From NCBI GenBank assembly GCA_900617105.1, contig UYFQ01000385.1, forward strand, positions 1-33,209: 33,209 nucleotides of DNA. Reading direction: 5' to 3'. Shown here piece after piece: positions 5,215 to 32,280 of the stretch. The stretch's first letter is position 1; each line of letters opens with the position of its first letter. Source of the stretch: Hydrurus foetidus. Taxonomy: Eukaryota. A model generated the notes under the pieces. The model was not told the DNA's origin, made no database searches, and saw only the letters and a list, made by a program, of their open reading frames with translations. The position numbers and the translations under genes were made by a program.

Positions 5215-5241
5215 TTACCCCCACTTATCTTTCTTTCTTTC
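5215..5241 (-). other. Polypurine tract
   Basis: Minus strand GAAAGAAAGAAAGATAAGTGGGGGTAA immediately precedes the 3' LTR. Confidence 0.85.
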
Positions 5242-5583
5242 GAAAAAAATCTAAGCTAAATCTAAACTAAATCGAAACCCCCGTTTCTTTGCAAAACTTA
5301 TTATATAACTTAATCGAAAAAGAAAATATACAAAAATTTACAAAATCGAAAATATGAAACAAAATAAAAGTGAACATAAAAAGTTTTACAAAAGAAAAAT
5401 TGGAGAAACTTGGGGTTCGATGTCGAAAGATAAGGTGGGGTTGTACAAAAACAGTAGAGTACTGTTGTACGAGGGTCGAAAACGTAATTATGTCAGATTT
5501 TTACTGACTAAAAAACCATAAAAATCCCTTAGAAAAGGGCAAAAATTAGGCTAAAAAATCTTCAAAAGATAATACGTTCGAAC

Positions 5584-9660: not shown

Positions 9661-11030
9661 TTCCCTTGGTAGCCTCTACCAGCATTCTGGTTACCATAAC
9701 CTTGATTTTGGTTACCGCGGTTATTACCTTGGTAACCGGGATTACCCTGGTTGTTTTGGTTACCCTGGTTATTACCTTGGTTACCGCGGTTATTACCTTG
9801 GTTGCCTTGGTTGGGGTTGTTTTGGTTACCCGACCCATGGTTATTCTTTGATTTCTTGTTAGTGAACATCAAGAAGGGAGGGGAACCAGCGGGGTGGTGC
9901 CGCTGACGGTTTTCGTAACCAGGAAGGATTAACCTTTCCTGCCACATGGATTCACCGTTGGCTAACCATGCCTGCCCCACAGCTGATTCAGACCATTGAA
10001 TGGAGTGATCGTTGTTTGTGTCAGTGTAATATAACACAGGGCATGCGGGAAGCATGTGTGCAGGATTGCCACACGAGCGGCAGACTCGAGGAGCCACTGG
10101 GGGTACATCCAATGAGGTACGAACCGCTAGGGTGCTTTTGCCGCTCGGTGGATCCACATCGCGAATCGCGAGTGTACTCTCCCTCTTCTGTGATGCACGT
10201 AGAGGGGGTACTGCGGTACTCGGAAACGAGTAGATGAGATCAGGATTGCCGTAGCTCCTGCTCATTCGAATAGCCTCGCGCGCCGCGGAGACGACAGAGA
10301 TGAGGCGCATCATGGCGGACTCCCATGTAGGAGGTGACTGTGTGTCGACCCTCTTAGACTCAAAGTAGTCTGATTGGATACGACTGCCACGAGCAAGTCG
10401 TTTCTCCAAAATCGATATCAACTCCGACTGTTGGTTGGGAGTGATACGGCGGGTGCGCTCGTAATTGGTTACCAATTCTTTGTACGCCATGTACGTGCTC
10501 AACTCTTCCTCATCGGAATTTAATGAGTAATGAAATGGTACCTTAGCGAAAAGTTCCGCGAGGGTATGATCGGCATGGTCTCGTTGTTTATTCGAGCCAA
10601 AATACTGCATGATTAGTTTCGCAACATAATCAATGTCAAGTATATTCTGCCATTCGAACCTCTGTTCTATTGTCAGAGACGAAGGAGCGGCGTCTGTCAT
10701 AATCTTGACGTGGAGCAAGTCAATCGCTTGACGTTGCATGCATTCATTAATGCGTAAGCGAGGCAGCCGCTGAGCTTGCTCAAAGAAGCTCTCAGCGTCT
10801 TGCGGAGTGATGTAATCGCCTTTTAGGACGAATATCTCTCGCTGCATCTGCATAGTCTGTGGAAACAGTATAGTCTGTGCCACCGAAGACTGTGAGGTTT
10901 GGGTGGCATTTAAAATACCCCCGTCCTCTTCTAGCGCTTCCTCTTCCTCAGTGTCAACCACTGGAGGATGTTCGATGAGGTTACCCTCATCGTCGTAGCG
11001 AGGGTAAGATGCTTCTTCGTCATCGGCCAT
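9579..11030 (-). CDS. gag: Gag-like protein with CCHC zinc knuckle and N/Q/G-rich C-terminal repeat
   Basis: CRSCGNPAHMLPAC fits CX2CX4HX4C; first ORF after the 5' LTR. Confidence 0.88.
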   Translation of the reverse strand: MADDEEASYPRYDDEGNLIEHPPVVDTEEEEALEEDGGILNATQTSQSSVAQTILFPQTMQMQREIFVLKGDYITPQDAESFFEQAQRLPRLRINECMQRQAIDLLHVKIMTDAAPSSLTIEQRFEWQNILDIDYVAKLIMQYFGSNKQRDHADHTLAELFAKVPFHYSLNSDEEELSTYMAYKELVTNYERTRRITPNQQSELISILEKRLARGSRIQSDYFESKRVDTQSPPTWESAMMRLISVVSAAREAIRMSRSYGNPDLIYSFPSTAVPPLRASQKRESTLAIRDVDPPSGKSTLAVRTSLDVPPVAPRVCRSCGNPAHMLPACPVLYYTDTNNDHSIQWSESAVGQAWLANGESMWQERLILPGYENRQRHHPAGSPPFLMFTNKKSKNNHGSGNQNNPNQGNQGNNRGNQGNNQGNQNNQGNPGYQGNNRGNQNQGYGNQNAGRGYQGKNPVGVNTTHPRGDPTRLPIQRDKIKV

Positions 11031-11593: not shown

Positions 11594-11605
11594 AATAGTA
11601 CTATT
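11594..11605 (-). other. 12-bp perfect palindrome AATAGTACTATT at the primer-binding-site position of Gypsy element 1
   Basis: Overlaps the last base of the 5' LTR; no TGG-initiated tRNA-type PBS is present. Confidence 0.85.
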
Positions 11606-11812
11606 GTGGTCGGGCAAATGTAGAAAGGGGGGCGAGAGGAGGTAGGCTTAGTTACAGGTGTCTATACTAGAAGCTAGTTAACTTCTAAGTGGACGCTGTA
11701 GATGGCTACGACGATACGACAGCCCAACTGTAGTGTACAGTAGTAGTACCCGGTAGGATCCGGTAGAGTCGGTACCCGGTAGGATCGGGACCCTGGACCC
11801 GGTACTATCACA
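11605..11812 (-). repeat. 5' LTR (208 bp)
   Basis: Direct repeat of 5007-5214, upstream of gag on the minus strand. Confidence 0.97.
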
Positions 11813-13621
11813 GTGGTAAAAGTATGACGTGTTACAAACGTCAATTTATTGGGATTGGGAGCCCCATCAGGTCCATCTGATCTACTCTTTGACTGCTCCT
11901 GAACCTACTCTAGTCCTTTCTGCAGGAAATCCAGAATCGGAAGAGGTTGTCTGTACGTCAATTCGTCTTTTACGACTTTGTTTGTACCTTCCAGTCCATT
12001 TGTGTTTACAACATAGTTGTGGGCGTGTCCTGATGTCCAATTTCCGAGTCGCTCATTGCACCATTCCATTCCGACTTAAAATGCTCAGTAATACTAAGCA
12101 CAACAGGGTTTGGACGCTGTTCCCACTTTTTGAAATATAGGGCTTTCAGCAGGATTGCAACTGCAGGTGTCCATGTATAGGAAATTGCATTTATATCCTG
12201 CATGAATTCAGCTTTAACTTGTAGGTCCACGATTCTCTTCGCGTGCTTTTCCGTTGCCTTTAAAAATTCATGGCATAAAAATAATTTAAAAAATGAAAAA
12301 TAAAAAAGTTTCATGTAGAAATCGGATGGGTGATCGAACTTCTAGGAAAGGTTCACACAACGCCAGTATAAGTGCTAAGGAGGTTGTACCTTGTACACAT
12401 GGGCAAAGCACATCAATCTTGAAGTTATGGAGTCAAACACTGCGATGGCGGCATTGGCAAATGCCTCAGCTCCGTCCCCTAGGTAGGCCGTCGGAAGAAA
12501 TGCGGGGGCATGCTCTCGGATTGCGCGAAGGTAGATTTCGCCGACCTCCTGCGTCGAGTTTGTAGAGACGCCGATGGCCCTGATTTTATAGGGATAAGGT
12601 AAATTACATGACAGATACATCTCATTTCATAGAAAATTAGCGCCTGGATACCTCAAATGCCAGACTCTGTTCATGTCGCTTTGGCCGATGAGAGTCAGTG
12701 CGTAACCTTCGTGGACTACTTTAAATCTTTTATCAGTCTCGATGGGCGTCGAGCTGTCCAGCTCGCTGAGAAGTCGTCTCGTAGATAGAACAATCGCAAA
12801 AAATGGTTCGGACTTCTGACTGTCGATTACACAATCTATGCTGCAGGCGTCATGATCTCTACTCTCGGGCTTGAGTTCGGTTGCCGCTGCAAAGTCGAAG
12901 ATGTCCTGGAGGCTTTGATCTCCAACGGCCACGCCTCCTCTTTGCCTTTTTTTTAAGTACGATGTATAGCTAGATATCATGGCTGTTTTCGGCGTTGGTA
13001 TGGGGTCTTCATTAGCCAGATTGGCTACCTGCTGTAGTCTGTTGAATTCCCTGATGACCTGAGATAAAGTAATGACGTTTTGTTGGTTACAGATGTCTTA
13101 TCTTTTCAGGAATCATATCTGACGAGCAAGGTGAAATAGAGTACCTTTTTTGGCGTTGCCTGCCCTCTTTCAATACTGAGCCGAACAATACCTTTCTGCA
13201 GTGCTGTGAGTCCTCTTTCGCGAGCGACTTCCACCTGGTGATTGTGCTCGGTTGCCGTAAGTACCTCTATTTCGAAGTGTGGTATGTCTTCATTGTAGTC
13301 TAGATTTTCTAGTAGTCGACTCCGATATGGGCACGCGGATACAGAGCATCGAAGGTAAGTTACTCGTACTCCGAAATTATGATTCATGCGGTGCTTTGAG
13401 AGCTTCATCTCCCTCAAGTACTCATCGACCTGCAAGACTGTACACGATGCAATGATCAGATTAGCTCGTCGGAGTACAATGACTATGTTATCAATCAATG
13501 ACGCAGAAACTTCTTTACCAGTGTCAAAAGTCAGGCTTGATGCCCAATCAAGACCTTGACCGCGGCCGCCCTCAGCTGCTGCATTGATTGCTGCTACACC
13601 TGCATCAATTTCTGGATCCAT
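11813..13621 (-). pseudogene. MULE transposase, 5' and core part with four introns (13430-13510, 13059-13144, 12580-12651, 12258-12389); frameshift, stop codon, then LTR insertion
   Basis: N-terminal C-x4-C...HNH zinc finger (RCSVSACPY...EHNH); DDE core IETDKRFK, LGDGAEAFANA, CFAH, TNGLEGTNKVVK; 5-bp duplication at 12061-12070 and in-frame TAG near 11907. Confidence 0.88.
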
Positions 13622-14175
13622 CGTCAATTGATTTGATTTAATCTCGCTTGTGCTTTGCACTTTGCACTGCAGTGATGCTCAGATATCTCTGAATCAAACT
13701 ACAGATTTGTCCGATATTGGGTGATGTTGGTGAAAAAAGTCGGTGGCTGTCAGAAATAACGATCTTCAACTTTATAGCTGTTTTGTGTATAAAAAAGTTT
13801 CCCGTTCCATATTAAAGTTGTAAATTACCAATTAAAGTTGAAATTCTCATTTTACAGTTGCGTAAAAAAAATAGTGCCGCCATACACCAAAAAAGTGCTA
13901 TATTCCAGAAAATAGTTGCATTCCATAGATAAAGTTAATTATTACAGATTTTAGCTGTCCGTTATTGTGGTCCCGATCTTGAATCTATACACGTCACGTT
14001 TTTTATCGGGGGGAACCTGGACTTGATTGAAGCTTTTTGTCGAGTCAGCAGTCTAGCTCGAGCCAAAGAGCTCAAAACAGTACAGTACTTGTTCACCGAG
14101 TTGTTGCGTGACGAGGTCACCCACCGAAATGTTCACCGATAAGAAGAGGACACTGTAAAGTAAGTGAGAGCATAC

Positions 14176-16351
14176 ATGGCTGAGGATTCCAGGGAGTTGA
14201 ATGCTCCCGCCAATGACGACGACGAGACGACCGGCGGACGGAAGAAAAGACTACTCAAAAAAGCGCCAGATGCACCGAAAAGATTCAAAACTGCCTACAT
14301 TTGTTTCGTCATGGAGAAAATGGATATAGTGAAAGAAAACTCTTCGAAGGAAGAAAAGGTAACTTTCCTATTTGAGAACCTCGTGGACGAAATTTTCGGA
14401 AGGGGTTTATTTATCTCATGATCACGAAATGTTTCAGGTGACCGAACTGATGAAAAAACTTGCGTCGATGTGGCAAGACTTACCTGCGGGCGAGAGGCAA
14501 AAGTATGATGCAATGGCCGAAGTTGATAAACTCAGGTGCTATCGGTGAAGGCACTACACGATGGTTACGCATCTTCAACATAAGACAACTTCTCTCGTCA
14601 TCGTCAATCATGCTGATGAACCGTTATGCACTAACATATTTCCCTTTCTCATCTGCTCTAGATATTTATCTGAGATGTCCAGATACACAGGACCGATGCA
14701 TGTTCCGAATAAGCGCATCAAAAAGCCAATTGGAGCACCGAAACGAGCCATGTCGTCATTTCTTTCTTACAGTCAACTCATGCGTCCTGAAATTCGATTG
14801 CAATACCCTCATCTAAAGAATACAGATGTATCTAGTGTACTCGCCCAGAAGTGGCACGAGGCGAGCAAGGAAGAAAAGAAACCTCATATCGAGAGAGAAC
14901 TCAGAGATCGGGAGAAGTATCACGAAGATATGGCTCAATGGAGGCAAGATGAGCAAGAGCGATTGGAATCAAACAGGGCGTCTACGGAGTTCGCGAACGG
15001 CCATTTCGAGGAAATAGGGCAACGCCACCTGCACTCGAGCATTCCAAAAGAAACCTTCCCGTCGATATGGGCCGCGATGATTGATGTAGATGAGCCTGGC
15101 GGGACCGGAGCAGGCACATATTCGCCTCTCTATGACGACGCCATGGACGGCTTCTGGGACATCGATGTCGAAGACAATAACGAAGAAGGAACCTCCGATG
15201 GCAGTGTCCCGACCACTATATCAGCCCCTGCCGACGGCGTTAATTCTGATTCTTCGAGATTCTTAAGTGAAAATACGACCAATCAGGCGACCGTAAAGAA
15301 CAGAAGGCTAGCGGAATGCGTCATTCCTCTCACGGGGCGGCAGCTGGAAGTCCAGCAGAAGCGACAGCAACAACAGCACCAGTATCAGATGTACCAACAG
15401 CACATCTTGAACCAAAAACATAAAGTCGACAAGGGCAGAGATGACCTAAGCATGTCCGGAACAATCGTCGCGCAAATGACTCAGGAACGGGTCTTTCAGC
15501 GTGAGAGTTCCATCAGGTCCTTGTCAGCAGGCGCCATCGTGAAGGGGGGTCGTCTGCACTCCCAGAGCATGGTGAACGAGAGGATGTCATCTCGAGAGGC
15601 GCAGCAGGCGCACATGCTGCCGGCCTATCAGGGCCTACAATCCACCCACATGACCCGGTCGTCAGAGAGGCCGGACAGCCCTTATTGTCCCTCATCCAAC
15701 TCCTTCGCGGCCGCTACGCAGTTGCCACCAATTGTAGGAGACGAGAGATATTCGCACGATCCTCCTCAAAGCTACTCGTCTCAAAGTTCAAAGTCACCGA
15801 CTTTAAGTCAAGGAGTTCCTCTCCCTCAGCCCCAGTCGATGAGATATTTCCAATTCGAAGAGCAGGATCAGATGAGCGTTATGCAGACTTTGATGGCAGT
15901 GCACAGAGCTACAGCTAGTCGCGCTGGCGACTCCGAGACCGTGAGATCACTAGACCGCATGCAAATGGGCCAACACAGTCAAGGTCACGGTCTTTACTCC
16001 GACAGATCGATTACGTCTAGACCGATGCAACCTCCAAGCCAGCTCATCCAACCAAGTAGCAACAGGGAAGGGCGCATGTACACTTCCACCAGCAGTGACC
16101 TACTGTACGGGAGCATAGCACCAGCCGAGTGCGCACCACTAAGTCTCGTACAGCAGGAAAGACAGAATCAAACGGAACGGATGCAATTGTCGAACAGGCA
16201 GCAGAAGCAGCTGCAGGACATGCTCGCACTGCAACAGAGGGAGCAAGCGGAGCAGAGCCACCAGCACTCCTTCTCCATAGTATCAGCGTCCTCCGCATCA
16301 TCGTCATTGAGTTTTACCAACTCAGTCTATGGACGAGATCGAAACGCCTAA
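14176..16351 (+). CDS. Protein with two HMG boxes and a long Q/S-rich tail; exons 14176-14358, 14438-14535, 14662-16351
   Basis: APKRFKTAYICF...LASMWQDL...QKYDAMA and APKRAMSSFLSY...LAQKWHEA...REKYHEDM; GT-AG introns keep frame. Confidence 0.9.
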
Positions 16352-17626
16352 ATGTCAGCAAATTTCTTATGCAATAGAAACACAAAACAACAACTCAATG
16401 TCCCTAAACTAACCAGTTAGGTGATATCTTATTCGCAAGACCTCAACACAAAACTATTCAATATTTCCACCTTTGTGTCCATACCACTAATCACACATTT
16501 TCCCAATAGCGAAGGATGGGGCCGATCCACGTTAGTCATCTTAGACTCCAACACGCACATACCCTTACAGACAACGAATGTGACACAACGTCTGGGACCA
16601 GTCAGTTGGCCAGTCGGCGACAGCAATTATCATGTTTCAGCCCCTTCAACGTTCAGCTCCGCAATGGGCATAGGCCACGCGCTATCGATTACTTTAGGCA
16701 TGGACGCACGAAACATCGTCTCGTCCGGATCCGCTTCTTGTTTAGCATCTAACCCGCACTTTTCTGTTTCATAGATGCCTTCATGTCCATCTGGTGATGT
16801 AAATAACGTTGTTAGATACTCGACACATTCTGTAACGACAGAGGCAATTTTTTATGACGACGATAAGAATGCATGAGCACGAAATGAAAAGGCCACCCAC
16901 TCATGAGATTTTTTCAGATCTCTCGTTGCCACCAAGATACACGATGCTTACGAATCGAGAGGCCATTCATGTGGTCCATACCTCAACCACTTCCCAAATT
17001 CACTAACAAACGCTGTCCTTGAGTAGCGTATTCTTCCATGGAAGAGCGCCTCCAGTTACAGAATACTATCCAAAAATAGAAAATAGCGAAACACCCCTTG
17101 TACTAGAAGGAATCTCGCTTCATAATCATCGCGTTTGCAAAGGATTTCATTGCATCAGTCCTTCATACTACCCTCAGCGACTTCCCAAAAGTTCCAGAGG
17201 CAAGAGGCGTGAATAACCAAGATAAATTCGGAGACGCTCGCAACACAGCAGTGCCTTCCGATTTTATGATAGCTCTACTCTTATCTCTACTAATTTCACG
17301 ACTCTCTTAATTCATGATAGCTCGACTCTTCAATATTTGCTCCTCACCGCGAAACTGTTCACGATGACAGTCTGGCGATGCATTTAACCTGATGCCGAAA
17401 CCCAGACCCAAAGTCGCTTTTCATTTTTCATGGGCTGAAAGTTGAAAGTCATCGTTTTTGAATTATGGAGCGAGTTCGAGTTGAGTGTTGAGAGAGTTGC
17501 CTTCTAATTTCTAATTTCTGTCTCCTTCACCCTTCACTATACCAGAAATCCTCACGAATCAGATCGCATCTCGATCTGGTATCTGGTTCATCCGTAAGCT
17601 CTCGCGAAAAGACCGTTATTATCGAT

Positions 17627-18166
17627 ATGACACTTCCTGAGTCCAGTTCGGATCTGGTGATTGCAAATCACTACCCAGCTATTGAAAGAGTCCTCGGACA
17701 CCTGAGAGCAAGGCTAAACATACCGTCTCCATTAGAATTGGTCCAGGACGTAGCAGTGGACTTTGATCATTCTAGAAAATCCGATAATTCTATGTCAGAA
17801 CGAGATTTGAAAAGCGCTGACTGGATCGGCACAATTCAATTTGAGGATCAGAAGTCTGACATAGATTTCAACGATAGTGCAATTACTCAAAGCCCATGTC
17901 CTAGGCCTCAAACAAATTTTCAAGTAGCCTCCGTAACTCACTTTTCATCAGCATCGGAGGCAAACAATTTAGCTGTCTCATTGGGGGATAACGGTGGCTT
18001 TCACGGTGATAATACCTCAAAACCTTCCTCTCAATATTCGCATCAGGAGAGAACTGCTTTCATAAGAAAACTTGCGAAAGAAGTGACGCCGGGCAGCAGA
18101 CGTATTTACTTTATTGCAAAGCAGCTCGCTCTTTCGTCGTCTGCGGAGCCTACAAAAGTCTATTGA
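17627..18166 (+). CDS. Hypothetical protein, 179 aa
   Basis: ATG-initiated ORF with protein-like composition; no recognised motif. Confidence 0.45.
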   Translation: MTLPESSSDLVIANHYPAIERVLGHLRARLNIPSPLELVQDVAVDFDHSRKSDNSMSERDLKSADWIGTIQFEDQKSDIDFNDSAITQSPCPRPQTNFQVASVTHFSSASEANNLAVSLGDNGGFHGDNTSKPSSQYSHQERTAFIRKLAKEVTPGSRRIYFIAKQLALSSSAEPTKVY

Positions 18167-18600
18167 GTGAGCAGCAACAGCGAACTCTATGTCTAAGCTG
18201 GTTCCGACACGACAATGGATGCTTTTTAATCTTAAAGGATTCCGTGTTCTACATTGAAAGAGCCAAATAAAATCATTGAAGAAGTACATTTGAAAATGTC
18301 GAAACGACTCTGCCGCAAAATTCATTGGGCTGGAACATTCAAAGTAGGAATTTCCCGAATATGTTCCGTAGGAATGAGAGTGATTTGGGCAGACAAACAA
18401 CTCGCGCAAAGAATAATCAGGATGTGAGATGTAACAGATGCACTAAATGCAGTGAACAGACGTGATTGAAATGGTATGTGCGCGCAATGCAGTATTTGTG
18501 TGATGCTAATGTCAAATCAGACTTCATCACATGAAATGAAATATACCTCACTGTTTCAATTCGTAACAGTTTGCATATTTTTCACTCCGCACTTGTTCAT

Positions 18601-20689
18601 CTATTTCTTCGACTCTCTCTCGAGTCTTGCCTGAATTCTCGTGCTCTCCTTTAAAACCCCTGCGACAATTTTTTCTTTTTCTTTTTCCCAGGCGTATTTT
18701 GACTTGAAGTAGTAGGATATTTTCTCCACTGATGGATTGTACAGATCGAACGATTCATTGAGCCAATTCATTGATGTAGAATTAAACCGTATGCCCTGAA
18801 GAATTGAGTAATTTAGAATGCAATACTGTTAAATAAATGAGCGAAAGATGGTATTTGGACGCAGTATAAGAAGGGTGCATAGAAACGCACATGTTCCGAT
18901 TCATCATCGTTACCACAGCTTTCTCTCTTACCTGTGCGATGAGCTCTGCCCCCTCTACAGCGAACACTTCCTAATAGGATATGACGAAATGGAAGACAAG
19001 AAGAGGAGTCAGATGGGTCTAATATGGGGAACGCGTCTTGAGGAGGACAAAACCAATTGTGACTTCCATTGACTCCATCAAGCAGAGGTCAGCGAACAAC
19101 ACAGCGCAAACATGAAAAATCAATTAAGCTACGACACAATCGACTGGTGAAAAATGCGCACACAACTTAATCTCACCACTTTCGTGTATGCTATCCCCGA
19201 TACGGGTGACGCTGTTTTGGGACTTAACACGGATATTTCACCGAATATCTGTCCCGCCCCCAAGAGCCCTACAGTGGATGACCACATCTCCCTCGTACTG
19301 TCGAAGGCACTTGCCCTATTCTTGCTCTCCTTGAGCTTAGAAGGCGAACAGGATCGTAAGATGTCTCTCAGGTCTTTTGCTTGTCTGCTCTGTCTTGTTA
19401 TATCCCTCGGGAGTGTCGATGATTCTGAGGGGGAAGGTGTACCATGGTGGTGCCAAGAAGAAGAGGAAGACGCGGAGGGAGATGACGCACGTGAGCTAAC
19501 CGTTCTCTTCACTAGTGAACTCCTACAGTAATTGATTTCAAAGCATTAAAATTGGCGTACGAAAATGACGTCTGATGATGTGCCACCAGGTAAAAGGAGA
19601 TGAAGATTAGAGGGGTCAGCTAGAGCACTCACCTCCTCGCTCTCGGTGCAGAAGATTCGAACTGGTCGATCCACTTCTTCTCAATGACCCACAGACCGGG
19701 AGGAGCCAGCCCTGTTAAATGGGCAGAGCCCACACCGATATCGGACATGACCACTTCGTCATCGTCACTTCTCCTGTTTCTCACTGCACTGCTACATCCT
19801 CTGTTTCGATCTTTGTTCCCGTCCCTAACTCTGATCGATGAAGCTGATGTGCCGCGTATACTCTTGATGCCTTTCGTCGGGGATGATATGTTGATACCTG
19901 TGCCTGACATCGGTCTCTCTCTGTCCCTTCTTCTCGTTGATGTGAGACTGAGACTAGGCACAGGAATAACAGCATCCGCTGCAGAGGGACAGGACATAGG
20001 CTGGGGCAGCTCCTTAATCAATTTAACCACACCCGATCTCACGATGAACAAATCTCTCATCACCTCTCCGCTAGATAATAATTCCTCTCCCATAGTATAA
20101 TACATCACTTTCATTTTTGAAACGATGTAATTGATTTTTGTTTCATCAAAATTTGAGAAGGGTTTACAACTCAACACCATCTTTTTCATTTCTGCTCTTA
20201 AATCGACATCACACCTTCTCGTCACTGCTTTATAATCTGTAGACTGAAGTTCAAGAACTGTTGACATTTGAGTGCATACTGCTGATGATGTACGTCTCAC
20301 CGGATAATCTCCGTAATCTATTTCTTCTTCTCCAACTACCATTCCTTTTGTCAGTTTTTGCATTGATTTAAAGGAGTACGGAACATTCCCCGCTGGAGGA
20401 ATATTATCAACATGAGTTTCTGTTCTTTCGAAGGGCACGAGTACAATTTCTCCAGACAGTACTATCAGTAGGGAATGAGCATGCTCCCCTACCCTGTATA
20501 TAACACCGCCCTTCTCAATAGTCCTCATGTCTAATTTCTTTGCGAAGTCACCTAGTGCTCTTCTATCACAAGAATAATGGCTGAAGAAAGGTACTTTAGT
20601 GAGGAACTCAACCACAGCATCATCCGATGAAACCTTCAGAGATACGAAAAGGAGAAAAGAAGTGAGAAAGGTAGAAAGAAGAAAGAGAA

Positions 20690-20724
<35 letters not shown>

Positions 20725-21821
20725 GAAAGAAGTTCAAATGCCATCAGAAGATTATCATTGCATTCAAAACAATGCGAAAGTTGCTGTACCTCCCCTGCTG
20801 AGGAAAGATGTAGAGCGGAGTGCTGGTGCATCATAGAGTCGATAAGTGATTTCTTCTTTGACAGCGATTTCCGCGAATCTAAAGACGACTTATTCATGCG
20901 CCTCTGCATGCTTAGTATCACGTCGTCTACTGGCGCACTCTCTCGAAATGATTGCAGCAGCTAAGGAATTGTATCAAATAGACGATGGAGATTTTTCATT
21001 TTAGTGCGGAGATAGTCACGGAGAAGAAGACAAATAACAGCTGTATAGCAGTGAATGCTTCACATAGCAGGCACAAATAATTTGGCATTGTCAGCTTCAA
21101 AGCAGAGAAAGGGAATTTCTGCTGCATTGCTTACTTGAGTTGAATCAGGAATTGTCAGGGTGTTTCCTGCAATTAGTTCTTTACCCAAAGAGGGCTGCAT
21201 TATCACAGCGCGACAAATTATGGTCTCATTGATCGCTTCTATATAATTGCCTTTTTGACGTAGTAGCAAGCTTCTATTTTTCCGGAATATCAAATTTGAA
21301 GGATCGAGAGAGATAGCGCGATTGATACCCTGAAGTGCAAGTTCTGTGCGGCCCTGGGCATTATGCAGTCCCGCTCTATTGAAATGAGCTGGTGCGTAAT
21401 AAGGATAGATACTTAGGACCGTTGTGTAATCACTGATAGCAAGATTCACTTCCCCGACTCGCTCGTAAGCGAGAGCGCGCTGAAAATATTGAGGGAAAAG
21501 GTGGTACTCAGGCTGATTTGACTGGCCATCCACGCCATCGTTCTGACCACCACCATGGAGAGAATTCAGCATAATGATATTCGTGTTGCTTTTAATATCC
21601 CTTTCGAAAAGACCACGCGATCTATGATGCAGTCCTCTCGCTGATAGTTGAGCATCAGAGTTCTGGGATGGTTCTATCGACCTCTTCATTAGCAAATTCA
21701 ACTGCGTCACCTGAAATGTACCGTTTCCCAAGTAATCAATTTCGAATGGCATCATTTCTTTTTGTGTGGTGTGTTCAATATTTGGCTTAAATGACGTATC
21801 CTCGACAACATTGCAGTCCAT
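18601..21821 (-). CDS. TPR-repeat plus cyclic-nucleotide-binding domain protein; exons about 21821-21135, 20960-20790, 20633-19633, 19522-19177, 18970-18932, 18795-18601
   Basis: TPRs (YFQRALAYERVGEVNLAISDY; AHFNRAGLHNAQG; FRKNRSLLLRQKGNYIEAI); cNMP motifs (IYRVGEHAHSLLIVLSGEI...GEEE...RTSSA; LFIVRSGVVKL...GQIFGEISVL); all junctions GT-AG and in frame; start codon uncertain. Confidence 0.82.
20648..20731. repeat. AAAG/TTTC microsatellite within an intron
   Basis: aagaaagaaagaaagaaaga run. Confidence 0.85.
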
Positions 21822-22264
21822 TTTAGACCCTTCTCGGTAGTCGCCTGAAAGTTTGACGCTGACGTCGCCGCTGTGCAGTTTCAACAACTAATTTAGTCTG
21901 CTGAGAAGAGAGACAGAGTCAATGTCTTCCCCGCCCAATATTCTCTAAATAGCGATAAGGGTGTATGTGATTATGCCAGATGATGTCACAATTTTACTTG
22001 TTGCCGTGTTCCTGAACACAACGACATCACTCGGACATCGAGTTCAGTTTCAATCCATCCGTTGAAACGGTACTGCGGCCCTTGGGCGCAGTACGGAGTA
22101 CTACGGTACAGAACAACAGAACCGTGTAAGTTCAACTAAACTCAACTCAAGAACTGTGGGGAATATTATTCACTCGGTGGAAGTTTGTCATCCGAATCCA
22201 GTCCAAGTCGTCTGCTTCACTGTGTTTCTCACTCATTGATGGTATTTGGACTTCGAGATTGCAA

Positions 22265-23306
22265 ATGAGCAGCCTAGCTGACGATGAAACCTTTGAACGA
22301 ACTCTTTGTCAGCTCTCGCAGTGTCATGTGTTCAAGATTCCAGTGAGAAAGACTGCAGGTAAACATTCAGTAGATGTTTAGCAAATCATAGCAACAAGCA
22401 ATCATCATTGGATCATTCGTCGAGAGTTACTATACAATAGCGGCTGATAAGAGCTACCAACAACTGCATTCATTTAGATGGGCATAGAGCATCGGACTGG
22501 CCTAAAGAACATACATGGGCTGGAAAATTGAAAATTTCAGCGAGAGGTCGTCTGGCCGTCATTACTCTTCTTGATAGCAAAACAAATCAAGTTTTCGCGA
22601 CATGTTCAGTCACAGATGATTCTTGTGTTGAGAAAACCTTAGACAGTGGAAGGTACTTCGTGCTGAAAATTCAGAACGCCCAAGGACGTCATGCCTTCAT
22701 CGGCATTGCTTTTAATGAAAGAAATGACTCCTTCGACTTCAATGTGGCGCTTCAAGAGCATAAAGCGGAATGCGAGAGAGAAGATCGGGCGCAATCAGAG
22801 CCCGTCGCTTCTTCCATATGCGCTCCTCTCCGTGACTTGAGCTTGAAGGCAGGGGAGAAAATTACTGTAAAATTAGGCGGCGCCACCAATGTTAGTCGGA
22901 GTCAATACTTCATATAATGCCAACATAAGTAGACCCACTCAGCCCGTGATAGGAAATCTAATTGCGAACCTATAATTTCTCGCAGGCTGTCAAGAAAGAA
23001 AAGAAACCGATGGGTGCATTGCTGCCTCCTCCTAGCGCGGGAGGCAGTCGCGGTCTACTCGCTCCGCCTCCTAACAGAGGACTTCTTGCGCCGCCTCCAG
23101 GAGATTCTCGCTCCAGCTTTGACACCTCGAAGTCTGCTGCAGTGGCTCCTTCCTCTTCATTGGTGGATTTCGGTAGCGTAGATCATTTTGGTTCTTCAGT
23201 ACCGAAGGCTTCTGGTGCTACGGATGCGTTTGGATTCCCCGTAAGCGTCAGCACGACTACTACTGCACCGCGGCAAAATAATTCCTCAAGTTTACTTGAT
23301 TTCTGA
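22265..23306 (+). CDS. NECAP: Adaptin ear-binding coat-associated protein; exons 22265-22358, 22478-22890, 22986-23306
   Basis: PHear domain motifs HVFKIP...GHRASDW...WAGKLKI, DSGRYFVLKI, HAFIGIAFNERNDSFDFNVALQ, DLSLKAGEKITV; LLPPP repeats. Confidence 0.92.
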
Positions 23307-23525
23307 AATGATAGATGCTTCCAATATCAAAAAAAGCGCATCGCCAGCACATGATGTAAGAGGCTTCTGAGTTGAACTGTGATGTTGTCTGGTTTTAGTT
23401 ATACATTTCGATCAAAGTAGTTACATTTGTTATATTTGCTCATTCATGGCATTAGATAAGGGATCCGTTCCACGTATTAATCGCGCTCCGCTCCATGCTC
23501 CATGTAACGACTTGTAACTTTTTAC

Positions 23526-24295
23526 TTAGTGGGCCTTCTGGAGTGAGTCTAGAGTGTCGGTCACTTGCTGCACAATGTCTGATGTGCCGTATCCTTTCGC
23601 GCCGTCTGCGCCCTCAGCAACGATTTGTTCCTTGATCCATGCGCAGGTGGTCTTAAGTCCGACTCTGATTGGGATGGATGGGGCCCATCCGATCTTGGCC
23701 TTGATCATGGTGTTGTCACTGTTTCTGCCTCTCACACCCATGGGGCCGGGGATATGCTTGATTGGTAGGTCCTTGCCCTCGAAACTCATCGCGATCTTCG
23801 CGAACTCGTTCATGTCCACCATTTCGTCGGTACCCAGATTGAGAGGCTCGTGGCAGTCGGAAAGCATGATTCTGATGGATCCCTCCACACAGTCATCGAT
23901 GAACATGAAGGAGCGTGTCTGGAGTCCATCTCCCCACAGCTCGAATTCTTTGTCAGAAACAATCGCCTTACGGCAGAAGGCGGCGGGACTCTTCTCTCTG
24001 CCGCCTTTCCATGTTCCTCGGGGACCGTACACGTTGTGGTAACGTGCGATGCGGGTCTTGATTGGGAAATCTTTGGCATAAGCTAACGCCATCTCTTCAG
24101 CGTAAAGTTTTTCGAGACCGTAGGTGTCCTGAGGACGAGCGGGCCAGGCCATATCTTCGCTGAGACCGACATTCTCTGGATCCATCTGAAGTGCCTCGTT
24201 GTAGACACATGCGGTGGATGAATAGAAAAATCTGGGGACGTGGTTCTGTCTGGCGGCATCCAACATGTTGAAGGAGATCATGGTGTTGTTGTAGA
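23526..24295 (-). pseudogene. GME: 5'-truncated tandem duplicate of GDP-mannose 3,5-epimerase lacking the NAD-binding N-terminus
   Basis: 23354-24295 repeats 24329-25270 (offset 975) with about 5 substitutions. Confidence 0.85.
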
Positions 24296-24500
24296 AAGTA
24301 CAAGTTGATTTGACTCTTTGAACACGTAATGTAAGAGGCTTTTGAGTTGAACTGTGATGTTGTCTGGTTTAAGTTATACATTTCGATCAAAGTAGTTACA
24401 TTTGTTATATTTGCTCATTCATGGCATTAGATAAGGGATCCGTTCCACGTATTAATCGCGCTCCGCTCCATGCTCCATGTAACGACTTGTAACTTTTTAC

Positions 24501-25680
24501 TTAGTGGGCCTTCTGGAGTGAGTCTAGAGTGTCGGTCACTTGCTGCACAATGTCTGATGTGCCGTATCCTTTCGCGCCGTCTGCGCCCTCAGCAACGATT
24601 TGTTCCTTGATCCATGCGCAGGTGGTCTTAAGTCCGACTCTGATTGGGATGGATGGGGCCCATCCGATCTTGGCCTTGATCATGGTGTTGTCACTGTTTC
24701 TGCCTCTCACACCCATGGGGCCGGGGATGTGCTTGATTGGTAGGTCCTTGCCCTCGAAACTCATCGCGATCTTCGCGAACTCGTTCATGTCCACCATTTC
24801 GTCGGTACCCAGATTGAGAGGCTCGTGGCAGTCGGAAAGCATGATTCTGATGGATCCCTCCACACAGTCATCGATGAACATGAAGGAGCGTGTCTGGAGT
24901 CCATCTCCCCACAGCTCGAATTCTTTGTCAGAAACAATCGCCTTACGGCAGAAGGCGGCGGGACTCTTCTCTCTGCCGCCTTTCCATGTTCCTCGGGGAC
25001 CGTACACGTTGTGGTAACGTGCGATGCGGGTCTTGATTGGGAAATCTTTGGCGTAAGCTAACGCCATCTCTTCAGCGTAAAGTTTTTCGAGACCGTAGGT
25101 GTCCTGAGGACGAGCGGGCCAGGCCATATCTTCGCTGAGACCGACATTCTCTGGATCCATCTGAAGTGCCTCGTTGTAGACACATGCGGTGGATGAATAG
25201 AAAAATCTGGGGACGTGGTTCTGTCTGGCGGCCTCCAACATGTTGAAGGAGATCATGGTGTTGTTGTAGAGAAGCACAGATTGATTCGACACGATGAAGC
25301 CCATGCCGCCCATATCAGCTGCAAGACTGTACACGTGCTGGCAACCAGCTGTCACTTTGATGCAATTCTCCAGGATGCGCAAGTCAACTTTGTGGAACTC
25401 GTTGCAAAATTCTGATTGCTTCATGAATTCATTTTCTTTCCAGTCCGCGCACACAACGTAGCAGCCCTATTGATAATATCTAATGCTGTTGAGACGGATT
25501 GCGGCTTATGGAGATTTGAAGTGCAGCAAAGTATGCGTGATGTACCTCTTCCATGAGCCTTTTGGCGATGTGTGAACCGATGAATCCGGCACCTCCGCCA
25601 ATGCACACTTTGATGACGCCATCGGCACCAATTTCTTCAGGATGGTTCTTCTTGAAATCGGATGCAAAAGTGTTTCCCAT
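24501..25680 (-). CDS. GME: GDP-D-mannose 3',5'-epimerase; exons 25680-25546, 25466-24501
   Basis: GGAGFIG, LAADMGGMGFI, YSSTACVY, YGLEK, GTWKGGREKSPAAFCRK, WGDGLQTRSF, GVRGRNSDN. Confidence 0.96.
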
Positions 25681-26041
25681 TGTATTGGCTCTTTTGTGTT
25701 GCTAAGTTGTGAGCAATATCGTGACGAAGGTTTTAATATTTCATACTTGGCGAAAGCGAAAGATACAAATATCAAATATTCCAATCCAAAATTTGGACAT
25801 TCTTTCTCGCATATGACTCGCACTCGCACGTCGCGTCGGGTATATATTCTTTCCTGTGGATGTAAAACCGCAATCGAATGTACGTACGCTCAGATTTTAT
25901 TTTATTCATACCTACGTGATATCCGTTGGACTTTTTTTTTAAATTTTGAAATTTTTGGATTACGACTTTTTCCAGAGGACGAATTTTTCCAGGACGTGGC
26001 CAACGGCTGCATACGGTACGATCCCCCCTCTCGGTACGATA

Positions 26042-26612
26042 CCGTAGTGACCGGATACTCCATAAACGGCTAACTTCATAATCGAGATCTTTTTATAAGA
26101 GCATCCGATTCTCACTGACAGTTTCCCAAAGGCAGATATTTAGGTATAATGAATTACTTTTTTACTTTTAAACTATCTAAAAACTTGTACTCTCCCCTCA
26201 TCCGTTCGCTTGTCTTCAGCAATTTCCGCATTCCTCGCATCGCTTCTTCTCTTTCTCGTGGCCAGTCTGATTGCCTCCCTCTGCTCTTCCATTTGAGAGC
26301 GTCGCATCTCTTTTTTGGCTGCTTCTGTTGCTTCCTTCTCCTCGTCTCTGAAATTCTGGACGCCTAAATTTGCCAAATGATGCTTATTCTTCACAGAACT
26401 GAAGAAGTTTCTGAGATCCATTTTGCGCCGAGTATTCGTGACTGACACTGTTGCCTGTGCTTTCTAATGTGAGTTTGACCGCCTACTTCATAATCGCTTG
26501 TCCTAATAATTTTGAAAAATTAATTATAACTGCATCCGGTTTGCAGTCAAGGTCCAACACCAGAATTATGAAGAACTTGTTGTTACGATTATGGAGTATC
26601 CGGTCACTACGG
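26042..26612. mobile_element. 571-bp non-autonomous TIR element with TA target duplication (Tc1/mariner superfamily, pogo-like CCGTA ends)
   Basis: TA|CCGTAGTGACCGGATACTCCATAA ... TTATGGAGTATCCGGTCACTACGG|TA, 24-bp perfect TIR; internal minus-strand ORF 26421-26173. Confidence 0.9.
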
Positions 26613-26811
26613 TAGACAGAACATTGGACAGAAGTTGAGTGTTGAGTTGAGTGTTGAGTTCTTGTTCCAGATTCCAACCAACCTTTAGATACTACACTAT
26701 ATCCTGTACGCAGCAGATAGCGAGATGGCTGCAGGCTGCTGGTACCTTACTCGCTATTTTACTACGCAATCTATTTCTTTTCGACCTCAGTCAACTTTGA
26801 GTCATTCTGCC

Positions 26812-27852
26812 ATGAAGTGCGGGAAATCAATCATATGTTGCCTACTCCTCCTCGGCATTCATTCGTCAACAAATACAGCGTTCACCGTCCCAGTGCTACT
26901 GAAATCAACATCAAAGTATAAAAGAGGCAGCCTCCCCAGCACCACATTTCACAAGCAGAATGCCATTATCAATATGAAATTTAGAGATTCTCCCTCAGCA
27001 TTACATGCTATTTTCGATGGTAAAGGAAGCACAGAATCCGCCACTCAATCTGTTGGAAATATTAACAGGCTCTTCACGCGCTGTTCATGGATAAGTTGGT
27101 ATGGTCGTGCTACTTCTCATCTAGAAATTTTTACAAATTTGACGAATTATGCACTACTGCAGGTGGTTTCAAATAGTTCTCAGCATTATAAGTGCGGTAA
27201 TCTTAACATTTGCCAACACCGTCCGGAGGGCAGGGTCTTCTCAGTCCCTATGGGCTTCTGGTTTTTCATTCAGCGCAATCGGTGTTGTAGTCGCTTTCGT
27301 CAATTGTTTCTGGACTTTCAGTAGCACCAGGTTGGCTCGAAGAGTATCTGCTAACAAGGTCGAAACCAAAAAAATCTTCCCAACTTTGAAGCGGTATTGC
27401 AAGACTTCAGTGATAATAAGCCTTGTCGGTCTCCTCATATCATTGATAGGTAAGAGTTTCGACCGATCGTATTCAATTACGCTGACTTCGACTGGAATTG
27501 TTCGACCTCTCCAATTCACCGAATTTTCTATTATGTTCCTTTTCACTACATAGGGGCTGAACAAATAGTTGGAAACTTGGCATCAAAAGTCTTAACATCG
27601 CAGGGGACTTTTATTCCAGTCATGAATGCTGGTGGGAGCGTAAGTGCTCTTCAAGCACTAGACATATTTCTTGTCCAAGCAAACACCAATGTTTTGGTAG
27701 CTCAGTTTGTGCCGTTGGTGTGCAATTTATTTCTTCAGACGCAAATACCACTCCAAGGAGGAAGTGGATTGAAATTATCAGATCTACAGGAACCGAATTC
27801 AGCTGTCGAAAAACCTACTGAGAATACCCCGTTAGTTCCAAAGCCGATTTAG
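26812..27852 (+). CDS. DUF3611 / TIC21-PIC1-like plastid membrane protein with bipartite targeting peptide; exons 26812-27098, 27163-27449, 27554-27852
   Basis: WISWWFQIVLSIISAVILTFA, GAEQIVGNLASK and ALDIFLVQANTN motifs; N-terminus MKCGKSIICCLLLLGIHSSTNTA-F followed by basic S/T-rich transit-like stretch. Confidence 0.85.
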
Positions 27853-27974
27853 AGAGCGTATTTTTGTCACATTTGCTGTTTTGTTGCGTCGGGACAGAGA
27901 ATTATGTAGTAGAAGATTTCCTGTACGTCGGGAAACTGAATAATTACACAGAAGTAATGATAGTACCAATTATC

Positions 27975-29061
27975 TTAATTTGTGGCATCTTCAACAATTT
28001 TCCCAACAACGGGATATTTCTTCACATCGATAAATCTCTTCTCCCAATCAGCAAGTGTTTTCTGCTGCTCAGGAGTGAGGTCGCTGAGATCTCTGCTCTT
28101 GAGATCCTCCTCTTTAAATGACATTTTAGCAAGCGCCTTAGACGCATCAATTCCAGCGAACAAGAAGTAGGGACCTCCTTTTCCGTACATCTCTTTCCCA
28201 CCGAAACTCACATCAATGACTTTCCCGTTGATGCCCATTAGTATAGGTGCATCTAGACGACCTTGAGGGATTTCCGTGCATTCCTTGTAGGTCAGCAACT
28301 CACTCAAAGAATAATCTTTAAACGGTAAGGGAGCGCTGACTCTGCCGATAATTGGGTAGCATTTGTAGTCCTTGAACTTCGAATACCAGTCATCTAAATT
28401 GCTCCTATCTAGGGCGTTCAAGTCATCCAAATTCGTGTTGCAGAGATCCGCCTCTTCGAATGACAACTTCGCCATCGCTCTAGTAGCCTCTCTGCCAGCG
28501 AAACAATTGTATCTAATAGTCGACGAAGATTGGATAAGTGACACAGGTGAGACTTTAAGCGAGGAAGGCATGGAATGATGAAATAGAAGTAACTTAAGAA
28601 TAATGAAGCTCCAGTGATATTCCAGAAGAGAGATGATTGAACTCACCCAGACCCTTCCCCATAGAATTCTCGTGCTGAAGATACGTCAAAGATGTCTCCC
28701 TTCAAGGCAATGTAGATGGGCTGCTCGCCTTTTCCATCGAAGATTCGCTGTAAATTCGAGAAGGAATGGTTTTAATACAGTGACGTTCAATCTAAGGACA
28801 ACTGGGAAAGGATTGCATCTGATTTCATTTAAATTCCAAAATATCTGTGGAACACGAGATACTGACCAGCTGCTCTATAGTATAATCCTTCAATTCAATT
28901 TCTTCCTTCTTCTCTTCGGAAGGTTTGCTGCTCTTCTCATCTGTATTCCCAGAGACAGCATTCATGAGCAAGTAGGACAGTCCCAGACATAAAATGGTGA
29001 CGCCACAAAAAAAGATTGTCTTGGTGTCACCCCCCTTTAGCTTTGCGAAAACAGACTCCAT
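27975..29061 (-). CDS. Membrane-associated progesterone receptor (MAPR) family protein with N-terminal TM helix and two cytochrome b5-like heme/steroid-binding domains; exons 29061-28867, 28747-28647, 28512-27975
   Basis: Domain 1 PIYIALKGDIFDVS...FYGEGSGYNCFAGREATRAMA...YPIIG; domain 2 PILMGINGKVIDVS...YGKGGPYFLFAGIDASKALA...YPVVG; start codon could lie further upstream. Confidence 0.88.
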
Positions 29062-29478
29062 CGTAAACTCTTTGAAAGCTATTCCGAACTCGGTGTCGTT
29101 GAACTTTTCAAGAAGTGACTCGATGATGTCGGAGATTCCGATGCGGCCCGAATGATTGTTTGAGAAGTCAGCCCCGAGAGGAACGTTTTTTCCTTCAACT
29201 TTGAAAGTAACCATAAGACTTGATAAATTTATTGGCGTTTGCAAATGTTCAGACTAAACTTCGGAGAACAATATTTGCTCTCTTGGGCCTGAAGGTATAC
29301 GTCACATACGGAAAATAACCGGGATGACGGTATTTCTCGGCCAAGATTACTTGATTCATATTTCTTATATTTCTTGTATTTCTTATTTTTGATTTTTGAT
29401 CTGATTGATCTCTGTTTTCTACAGCACTCTGTCATGTTGGCTGGTGCTGTTGCTGAGAAACGCTCGTCGATCGATTAA

Positions 29479-29700
29479 GGGTCGTATTCCATCACAAAAA
29501 AAAAATACGAAAAATACGAGATTTCGAAATACGAGATTTTTTTCACCACCCAAAAAAAATTGCAAAACGAGTTCCAGTACCGGGAATATGTCGACCCCTC
29601 GGGAAAATGTGGTACCATACCTCAATTTGCCGTACTCGACCAATAAGCCGCTCACACAGGAATTCCTTGTACCGGTACCATTTTTTTCTCAAAGTCGAAC
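29479..29700 (+). mobile_element. Candidate left terminus of a DNA transposon preceded by TTAA, with subterminal AATACGA and GTACC repeats
   Basis: TTAA|GGGTCGTATTCC then aaaatacga aaaatacgagattt cgaaatacgagattt; right end not in window. Confidence 0.4.
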
Positions 29701-29904
29701 ATACTCGAGCAACCAGATCACAATTCACCACAACTCCAGAAACGCTTACAATTACAACTATCAACCAATCAAGACGCCGTAAGGATTTTCTAGTAGCTGG
29801 TATCGTAGTCAGTCATCCACTGTAGCGGCGAAATCAAAATCGCAATCCTAATCGCGCAGTAGTTAAGGACATTCTGTATCGTTGACATCTTGTTTGTTTC
29901 ACTG

Positions 29905-31289
29905 ATGGGCATCAAGGATCTAATAAGTAAGATATTTCCAGACGAACTGAAGGTGGAAACAACTCTCGAAGTGTTGAAGAACAGAACTATGGGGGTAGAT
30001 GTCTCTAATTACATGTTCAAGTTGGTGACATCGAGGGACAATCTAGTCCGAGATTTTCACTCTGATCCTCGCGTCGATATTTCAGCTTACATAACTAAAT
30101 TCTGGGACTCATTTAAGAAGCTGTGCGACGGATTTTCTATTAAACTAGTATAGTACTAGATGGCCGGAGGAATCCAGCCAAATTCGACACCAACGTTCTC
30201 CGGGAATCGGAAAGAGCTGATGCATTTCAGAAACTAAATGCACTCCTTCAGACCGGTGACGAAGATGATGCAGAGAAAGTTCTGAAGCTCCAAAAATCAA
30301 CAATGTATATCTCGGAGGACATGCTACTCACTATCAAAACTTGGGCGGCAACGAATGCTGTTGTTTGCGTAATGTCGCTGTACGAAGCTGACGCTGGGCT
30401 GCAGCACCTAGAGGATATGGGTATAATGGATGGGACGTTTTCGGAAGATGGGGACTTCTTTCCTCTTAACAGTAAATCATGGGCTACAAAGGTCAGCATA
30501 ACAAAAGGCACGATGATACTTTTTGATAGTGAAGTTATCAGAGAGGCGTTATCCAAAAGACTTTCCACCGATGGTAGTATCATTATGACAGCCGATCATG
30601 GGCGAGTCCTCAGCGTGTTATTAGGGAGCGATTTTCTTGCACGACCAACAGGATTCGGACCGAAGAGTGTTGAGAGTTTCCTTTCCAAATGGATGGTATC
30701 ATCAGCAGATGAGAAGGAAAAAATGCTCCAGGAGATAGAAGTAGGAAAAAGAAAACGAAAAAATAGCGAAAGTGGGAGTGAGAACACAGATGCATTTCCC
30801 AATTACCGTGTGAAATTTTGGCACGCCTTCAACATGCTGAAACACCCTCCGGTATTCAAGTTTGATTCTTTAGACGATGATGCCAGTGTTCAAGTGGGTC
30901 TCCTCGGCATTGAGGACCTATTATTGACCGATGAATTCGTGATGGATAAGCTAGGACATAATCCGTTGAATGAGGTGCATGAGTTAGGAGATTTCAGAAA
31001 ACTGCTCTTCATGGATAACAACATCTTCATCAGAACGATGAGCCCACTGTTACCTGTAATGCAACCTCGCAATGCTGGAGGACTTTTATTGCCTTTGGGT
31101 AGTCAGCACAACTTTGTGAAGTGGCCACCATTAATGTGTCCCTCTGACATGCTCAACAGATGGTTGCGCGCTAGGGGGGTTCGCTATTCACCTGCTGTTG
31201 CTCACAGCGATCTAGTTCAGTCCGTTAAAAGTCTCCTCATTGAAATCACCCCGAGAGAAATTATACCCGTGGACGATCTTCCTGAGGAG
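29905..31289 (+). pseudogene. Intronless EXO1/XPG/FEN1-family 5' nuclease with a SAP-like motif; one frameshift near 30150 and truncated by LTR insertion at 31290
   Basis: MGIKDL, GVDVS, VLDGRRNPAK, YEADA, SEDGDF, LLGSDF, GFGPK; SAP-like MLNRWLRARGVRYSPAVAHSDLVQSV. Confidence 0.85.
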
Positions 31290-31485
31290 TGTAGCCGTCT
31301 GGGGCCCTCGGGACCTTGGACCCCATTCCGTCTGTTTGGGTTCATACCCAAACACACTGTAGACTTCTAGGTAGACTCCTAGCACCCTAGTAGGATGTTT
31401 CCCTGCTCATATATAGTTCAACAACCCCTTTGTAAGCCTAACCCAACACCTCCTAGCCCTCTAGCCTAGTTCCTTCAGGGCCACA
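31290..31485 (+). repeat. Candidate 5' LTR (196 bp)
   Basis: TGTAGCC...GGCCACA imperfect inverted termini, internal TATATAG, size similar to element 1 LTR; partner LTR not in window. Confidence 0.68.
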
Positions 31486-31496
31486 GTGACGTCACT
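31485..31496 (+). other. 12-bp perfect palindrome AGTGACGTCACT at the primer-binding-site position of Gypsy element 2
   Basis: Overlaps the last base of the candidate LTR, same register as in element 1. Confidence 0.7.
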
Positions 31497-32280
31497 TCCC
31501 ACTTCCCACCAGCTTCTATAGTTTCCTAGTGTTCATTCGTGTTTTTCGCCGTCTTCCAGTGCTTCGCTGGAAAGTTAAGAAATCCCTCGTGAAGAGGACT
31601 TTCCAGAGTTCCCTCTACTCAGAGATCGATTGTTTTTGGCGGAGCAACGTGCTATTCGAGAGGAACTCGAAAACCGCTGCCCAACTCCGGAGATTACCTA
31701 CGCCGACGACGATCCAGATCGTCCGCCTGACAATCCTCCGTCTAATCCATCAACTTTCACCGACCCACGTCCGTGGACAGTAGCTCCTACAGTCCTACGT
31801 CATTCTCTTGATAGAGAAACCGCGAGTTCATCGCTTTATAACGCCTCTAATTACTACTCTACTCCTTCCACACACCCAGCACTCTCTTGCGTAACCCCTG
31901 CACCTTCAGCTTTTAAGCGAAGTCGACCGGTTTTCAAACCGAGAACAGTTGAGAAGCGACTTCCAGCAAGTTCGCTCCGCTGTATACCGAGGTTTCAACA
32001 CGAAACCTTGTCGAATTTGTTGGAAACCAACGAATTTCTGAGTGTTACGCCTGTTTCTGTTTTGCAAACTCGACCAACTTATAAGTCGACATTCACACCG
32101 GTTCAACAAACCGAGTCAAACCTAAGCAATCCACTTAGAGAGAAAAACGTTCCGGGGTTATATCCCGTTGAGCGTGGAAACGCTTCTTACGAGGCGTCGG
32201 GAGATAGTTTTCTATACGAAAATCTCCAGAATATAATTCCAACACTTCGTGTGGAATTATTGACTGAAAACACTCACCCT

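Follow-up and report, generated by a model that had tools for sequence, protein, structure and literature searches.

We analysed a 33,209-nt stretch of the Hydrurus foetidus assembly GCA_900617105.1 (contig UYFQ01000385.1), called the window below, which carries two divergent long terminal repeat (LTR) retrotransposons. Element 1 is a complete Ty3/Gypsy element on the minus strand, with paired TG..CA LTRs, a polypurine tract (PPT) and a target-site duplication (TSD); element 2 lies on the plus strand and is open at the window end. An earlier note, made from the letters alone, had claimed that both replace the tRNA primer-binding site (PBS) with a 12-nt palindrome starting on the terminal A of the 5' LTR. 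Both palindromes are indeed perfect, 12 nt long and set on that A (Table 1), and the LTR ends were fixed independently of them, by the LTR pair in element 1 and by mixed flanks in element 2. Palindromes of this size are not rare in the window (9 of at least 12 nt against 8.6 expected), whereas the chance of a 12-nt palindrome at one fixed position is about 2.6e-4; it is thus the position that carries the signal. Among relatives the site proves to be a real clade-wide cis element, a self-complementary stretch of 10–14 nt that stands in place of the tRNA primer site.

The two LTRs of element 1 differ by 3 mismatches over 208 nt, and their flanks make up a 5-bp TSD with one mismatch (4/5 identical). 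The ends of the element 2 LTR come from contigs of public runs. The loose end before 31288 is a PPT with the same core as that of element 1, so the LTR starts at the TG at 31290. Behind 31485 the loose ends are heterogeneous (4 contigs in X2, agreement 0.52; 8 in X4, agreement 0.49), so the LTR ends where the earlier note had put it, on the first A of the palindrome; three contigs in X2 and three in X4 keep matching as far as 31496 and differ beyond it. The 3' LTR and pol of element 2 lie outside the window, and the element is assigned to Gypsy by Gag homology and the shared PPT. The two Gags are homologous yet distant, as claimed (23% identity over 133 aa, E 2e-9). Within the element 2 palindrome, 4 runs list zero letter changes at 1% share. 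A common 7-nt deletion at 31493 drops one unit of a CACTTCC tandem repeat and does not disturb the palindrome. In all 4 runs a single-copy contig spans the flank to 31289 and then continues into other sequence, which suggests that the site at 31289/31290 also occurs empty and that the insertion is recent or polymorphic. Element 2 interrupts an open reading frame (ORF) at 30144-31370 with a weak XPG_I match.

The coding region of element 1 is split into four pieces in alternating frames (Gag, protease-like, reverse transcriptase (RT), and RNase H-integrase-chromodomain), versus one long ORF in relatives; in the relative P0012, Gag and an aspartic-protease-like motif share a single ORF. For the predicted fold of the Gag core the top three matches are retrotransposon capsid domains, with middling scores (VIA-align Z 7.6, 6.8 and 6.2), and Foldseek on this Gag returned nothing at E 0.001. 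The nearest solved structure to the RT is Ty3 RT (E 5e-46), which together with the order RT-RNase H-integrase makes the element Gypsy and not Copia, and the integrase end carries a chromodomain (PF00385, E 4.9e-10), as expected of a chromovirus. Upstream of the element, at 11820-13678 (minus), lie broken ORFs that look like a Mutator-type transposase by eye, for which Pfam gave no support; element 1 may have inserted into them.

A hairpin follows the pol stop of element 1 and also that of L001, L002, L006, L027, L031, L099 and other relatives, with the stem versions GTCAG/CTGAC, GTGAG/CTCAC, GTGGG/CCCAC and GTTGG/CCAAC. A pattern built from these same sequences hits 33 of 68 3' regions against 1.9 in shuffles, a few of the hits being due to chance; the hairpin is possibly a second cis signal.

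Table 1. Features of the two retrotransposons in the window (UTR, untranslated region)
Feature	Position	Strand	Remarks
Element 1 palindrome AATAGTACTATT	11594..11605	-	perfect 12-mer; first base is the terminal A of the 5' LTR
Element 1 5' LTR	11605..11812	-	208 nt, TG..CA; flank ACCAC upstream at 11817-11813
Element 1 Gag	9579..11030	-	483 aa from ATG 11030; no Pfam hit
Element 1 protease-like piece	8326..9675	-	motif LDTA, by eye; no Pfam hit; frame differs from Gag
Element 1 RT piece	7422..8225	-	RVT_1, E 1.4e-18
Element 1 RNase H-integrase-chromodomain piece	5584..7458	-	Gypsy domain order, chromodomain last
Element 1 3'-UTR hairpin	5492..5508	-	GTCAG-7 nt-CTGAC; paired changes in part of the clade
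Element 1 PPT	5215..5235	-	ends GTGGGGGTAA, adjoins 3' LTR; same core in the family of element 2
Element 1 3' LTR	5007..5214	-	208 nt; flank ACAAC downstream, non-palindromic
Element 2 5' LTR	31290..31485	+	196 nt, TG..CA; both ends from loose contig ends, public runs
Element 2 palindrome AGTGACGTCACT	31485..31496	+	perfect 12-mer; first base is the terminal A of the 5' LTR
Element 2 Gag ORF	31579..33207	+	open at window end; core homologous to element 1 Gag

The LTR-leader junction in related elements

Relatives were selected by their Pol protein alone, using an alignment of 36 Pol proteins. In metagenome contigs this confirmed 421 of 621 stretches, the best 80 of which gave 64 loci; genome bins gave 54 more, and Gag searches in 10 contaminated metagenome-assembled genomes added 2 (one of them, L120, with a junction), bringing the set to 120 loci. 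The Gag alignment itself is too divergent for a DNA-pattern scan, a search of viral contigs found no relatives, and a sequence look-up returned nothing that resembles this Pol. Loci L065-L104 show that many bacterial genome bins hold contigs of this clade of eukaryotic retrotransposons, a sign that such bins are contaminated. An LTR-leader junction could be read in 48 of the 120 loci (49 junctions, L032 having two), which with the two window elements makes 51; of the remaining loci, some stop short of the junction, others have a 3' LTR that runs into flank and nothing more, and the rest are outgroups.

A perfect palindrome on the terminal A is present at 46 of the 51 junctions and in 35 of 38 families, in 28 distinct sequences; over the 38 families the site measures 12 nt in 33, 14 nt in 3 and 10 nt in 2. 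The register is exact: of 37 families tested, 34 have a perfect site here and none has one when the frame is shifted by 1-4 nt. The three remaining families have one mismatch each, at the end pair in L005 and in L019/L022/L029 and inside the site in L053. The second of these comprises three diverged members, all of which keep an A.A mismatch at the 1:12 pair. Among the loci inspected by eye (the longer ones, and the short ones in part) there was no LTR-leader junction without a palindrome. The LTR ends in TA instead of CA in 5 of 38 families (L001, L019, L021, L040 and L073), with the palindrome register kept.

Three further results bear on the placement of the site. First, a blind scan of 510-nt segments behind any purine tract plus TGT found an A-initiated palindrome of at least 12 nt in 23 of 54 segments, against 1.48 expected from dinucleotide shuffles; the 31 segments without a match include false purine tracts in ORFs, 3' LTRs running into flank, and the families L005, L022 and L029. 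Second, in 7 cases a paired 3' LTR (same or sister contig) ceases to match at the A (+0 to +2), and the flank behind it is non-palindromic in all 7. Third, the LTR end is known independently in these 7 families, in element 2, and in L097, whose contig ends on the A. The observation of the earlier note is confirmed and reaches beyond the window. Pol identity among the 44 palindrome elements in a quick tree ranges from 31% to 99.7% (median 42%); the tree, made from fetched loci with 2 outgroup rows and leaving out L106, L110, L113 and element 2, groups all 44 against the two distant rows (Shimodaira-Hasegawa-like approximate likelihood ratio test, 99), which suggests that the palindrome clade is monophyletic.

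Known primer signals are missing from the same place. A TGG-initiated PBS occurs at none of the 50 clade junctions tested, and the window holds no tRNA gene. The outgroup Gypsy elements L106, L110 and L113, treated likewise, show a canonical TGGCGACGAG 1-2 nt after the LTR, so the palindrome of the clade occupies the primer position. A Tf1-type complement within the LTR was considered and rejected: over 25 families the longest match of the site is 5.36 nt to its own LTR and 5.32 nt to the LTRs of other families. L021 has a match of 9 nt and element 1 one of 7 nt; the latter, which lies at position 5 of the LTR and had been reported in the earlier note, is no longer than unrelated LTRs yield. 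That note had also reported the lack of both tRNA-type and Tf1-type signals, and this extends to the clade. A second copy of the palindrome of the GalEa type (CHSeq2) was likewise rejected, with 0 of 38 families having one within 80 nt downstream at up to 1 mismatch.

The LTRs of 22 of 34 families contain TGTA[AC] 30-90 nt before their end (in the window at 11656-11652, minus, and at about 31431), which we take to be, possibly, a UGUAA-type poly(A) signal.

Paired changes within the site

What is conserved is symmetry rather than sequence, as the earlier note had proposed from two elements. Across the 12-mers of 32 family representatives, 190 of 192 pair cells hold standard pairs and 51 are double changes, counts that kinship inflates; none of 500 shuffles reaches the observed value, and slid registers give 34-58%. 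All four Watson-Crick types are present at both inner pairs of these 12-mers, the centre pair being UA in 13, CG in 10, AU in 5 and GC in 4. Close sisters, too, differ by paired swaps. L010 and L014 share 99% identity over 4.5 kb; a stretch of 100 nt holds 4 differences between them, two of which fall on the partner positions 6 and 7. The near-identical sisters L033 and L037 also differ at positions 6 and 7.

All 38 families have a complementary centre pair. Adjacent bases cannot pair in a hairpin. The predicted self-folding energy is 0.0 in 36 of 38 sites, and the homodimer energy of the perfect sites lies between -6.2 and -19.3 kcal/mol. An always-paired centre and the lack of self-folding indicate that the selected structure is a duplex of two strands and not a hairpin. 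Of the pairing options raised earlier, the duplex is thus the more likely and the fold-back the less likely. Pairing stops at the terminal A, since the next outer pair is complementary in just 11 of 38 families. At the element ends we find A at -2 in 22 of 23 and T at position 3 in 36 of 38 families, so that the ends read AN|TG..CA|NT. We rejected the idea of a conserved U5-leader stem enclosing the palindrome (mean z -0.30, n 36; own versus swapped p 0.23); single elements, element 1, L027 and L073 among them, can form one.

Elsewhere in the window, a 399-bp unit stands in three copies, 99% identical, at 2862-3959 just downstream of element 1, and a tandem duplication at 23348-25466 (975-bp step, 99% identical) spans a gene for an NAD-dependent epimerase. 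DNA of this stretch was found in freshwater, biofilm, sediment and air metagenomes.

Candidate modes of priming

The site lies at the primer position, no other primer is seen, and a palindrome is the only kind of sequence open to binding by the element's own sense RNA, which makes self-priming in trans the simplest reading. The palindrome likely lets two element RNAs pair, and our best reading, to which we give a probability of about 0.5, is that one of two RNAs so paired is cut by RNase H and primes the other. The always-paired centre points to pairing between RNA strands, which would take place in the packaged dimer. The element's own RNase H, by analogy with Tf1, would then cut one strand of the duplex, and from the 3' end so made minus-strand synthesis would begin on the partner RNA. 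Plus-strand synthesis would copy the primer half back into the site and so keep its symmetry; with the site rewritten from its mirror image in each cycle, one mutation could become a paired double change.

The earlier note had placed the cut exactly at the U5 boundary, after nt 12. This now looks doubtful, because L019, L022 and L029 keep an A at position 12 together with the A at the LTR end, and the element ends speak for a 2-nt overhang. We would rather place the cut inside the duplex, after nt 9-11. Retroviral ends have 2-nt overhangs, and by that analogy the primer would end near nt 9-10; by Tf1 geometry it would end at nt 11.

Several points weigh against priming of one element RNA by another. 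All the data presented fit a dimerisation signal equally well, with priming by another route. A long primer requires a stop for plus-strand copying at the edge of the palindrome, and no such stop is seen. Many sites are weak, at about -7 kcal/mol, and rich in A/U; the symmetry need not be perfect (families L005, L019/L022/L029 and L053); and the CG/TA swap between L010 and L014 could be two CpG deaminations. Two loci blur the otherwise clean picture: the LTR end of L056, read as 3' flank, is followed by a 10-nt palindrome, an ambiguous eighth case beside the seven paired 3' LTRs, and in L091 the palindrome lies 90 nt behind pol, where no LTR start is visible. Finally, the material consists of assembled contigs, many of them collapsed assemblies of multicopy families, and most junctions were placed by eye where the palindrome was.

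The leading rival reading is that the palindrome is a dimerisation or packaging signal and nothing else, like the retroviral dimerisation initiation site (DIS) or Ty1 PAL, with priming by some other, unseen route. Such a signal would account for the two-strand covariation just as well, and palindromic dimer signals have been proposed for Ty1 (PMC4974528). However, it leaves these elements with no primer site, given the lack of TGG and of an LTR complement, and it does not explain why 10-, 12- and 14-mers all start on the terminal A; moreover, the DIS sits in a hairpin loop (PMC5445492), yet the clade has no conserved flanking stem. We regard this explanation as possible but improbable.

A variant of the trans-priming scheme, in which the primer would be a separate short sense RNA carrying the palindrome, is rather doubtful. 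That RNA would be either a transcript whose 5' end is the last A of the LTR, giving Tf1 geometry in trans, or a small RNA excised from the duplex. The end of pairing at the terminal A agrees with this, the length of 10-14 nt resembles the 11-nt primer of Tf1 (PMC7175516), and plus-strand copying would have a natural stop. The price would be a second start site or a processing step, and the TGTA[AC] motif, if it is a poly(A) signal, may mean an ordinary R-U5 layout.

We think it quite unlikely that the symmetry acts at the DNA level, in second strand transfer, end formation or a dimeric protein site, rather than in an RNA primer. A DNA palindrome would need a paired centre too, and the outer bases fit the symmetric ends described above, but 28 different sequences speak against a protein-binding site, the 3' LTR ends lack a palindrome in 7 of 7 cases, and priming would still be unexplained. 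Intramolecular priming, in which the palindrome would fold back on itself, pair in the Tf1 manner with the 5' end of the transcript, or form a hairpin of the GalEa type with a second copy, is very improbable: Tf1-group chromodomain elements do self-prime (PMC4600332, PMC7175516) and single LTR matches reach 7 and 9 nt, but the chance-level LTR match, the missing second copy, the always-paired centre and the lack of self-folding largely refute it. That a host tRNA, tRNA fragment or other host RNA anneals at the site is hardly credible, as there is no TGG at the junctions, one host RNA cannot account for 28 sequences that change in pairs, even between copies 99% identical, and the symmetry would be left without a reason.

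If the trans-priming reading is right, genome dimerisation and initiation would be one step, the element would not depend on host tRNAs, and a large clade would be under-called by annotation tools for which a tRNA PBS is mandatory. Paired mutants make the question testable.

Comparison with known systems

Our search of the literature, whose coverage excluded subscription journals and Repbase Reports, found no report of a palindromic PBS in Gypsy elements. The earlier note knew of no described family with this feature at all, which does not hold: the fungal GalEa elements, of the Ty1/copia type, carry a Conserved Hairpin Site, a palindrome of 10 nt that takes in the LTR's last A (PMC5445492), work that is also cited in a paper on bivalve terminal-repeat retrotransposons in miniature (PMC6934838). 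Its authors proposed the palindrome as a replacement for the PBS, found no fitting model and left the mechanism open (PMC5445492). The likeness to our clade is close, with no tRNA PBS and a palindrome on the last A of the 5' LTR in the same register. GalEa differs in being Copia where the clade is Gypsy, in having a nearly fixed 10 nt (CTGATCAGT or CTAATTAGT) where the clade has 10-14 nt in 28 covarying sequences, and in usually having a second copy that forms a hairpin (absent in 5 of 44 rows of the MOESM4 table), of which the clade has none in 38 families. The clade site works, by this analogy, like the GalEa site but outside the GalEa family.

Because the GalEa palindrome is nearly invariant, its authors could not separate sequence from symmetry, or hairpin from dimer. 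In the clade there are 28 covarying versions to compare, the centre is always paired and a hairpin partner is lacking, which narrows the options to a two-strand duplex. What is new here is therefore the covariation evidence for that duplex and the trans-priming mechanism it indicates; the motif itself has a precedent in GalEa. The balance seems to favour a third way of starting reverse transcription besides tRNA and Tf1-type cis priming: trans priming by the element's own sense RNA through a self-complementary site, which would serve an entire deep Gypsy clade of microbial eukaryotes and would have been reached separately by the fungal GalEa Copia elements.

Tf1 and its sushi-type relatives resemble the clade in being Gypsy, in having no tRNA primer and in having the site directly after the LTR (PMC7175516, PMC4600332). 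Tf1 and Tj1 self-prime in cis (PMC7175516, PMC4600332), and the RNase H of Tf1 RT is able to cut an RNA duplex for the primer (PMC7175516); the use of the element's own RNA as primer through an RNase H cut is thus established for Tf1, and would be shared by the clade. The difference lies in the partner: the Tf1 PBS pairs with the first 11 nt of the same transcript, its complement being in the LTR (PMC7175516), whereas the clade has no LTR complement above chance and the site is its own complement.

Ty1 PAL and the retroviral DIS are likewise palindromes that pair two genomic RNAs, but they are additional to a tRNA PBS, and the DIS sits in a hairpin loop (PMC4974528, PMC5445492), whereas the clade palindrome occupies the PBS position. 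Skipper of Dictyostelium and SM-Tcn1 can be set beside the clade by their descriptions: they are chromodomain Gypsy elements with no tRNA PBS and no Tf1-type complement, their priming is unexplained, and at this place they have a polypyrimidine or T-rich stretch and no palindrome (PMC5006619, PMC2864245). How priming proceeds without a tRNA site was left open for GalEa, Skipper and SM-Tcn1 alike (PMC5445492, PMC5006619, PMC2864245), and it is among such systems that the palindrome clade, with its self-complementary site at the primer position, takes its place.

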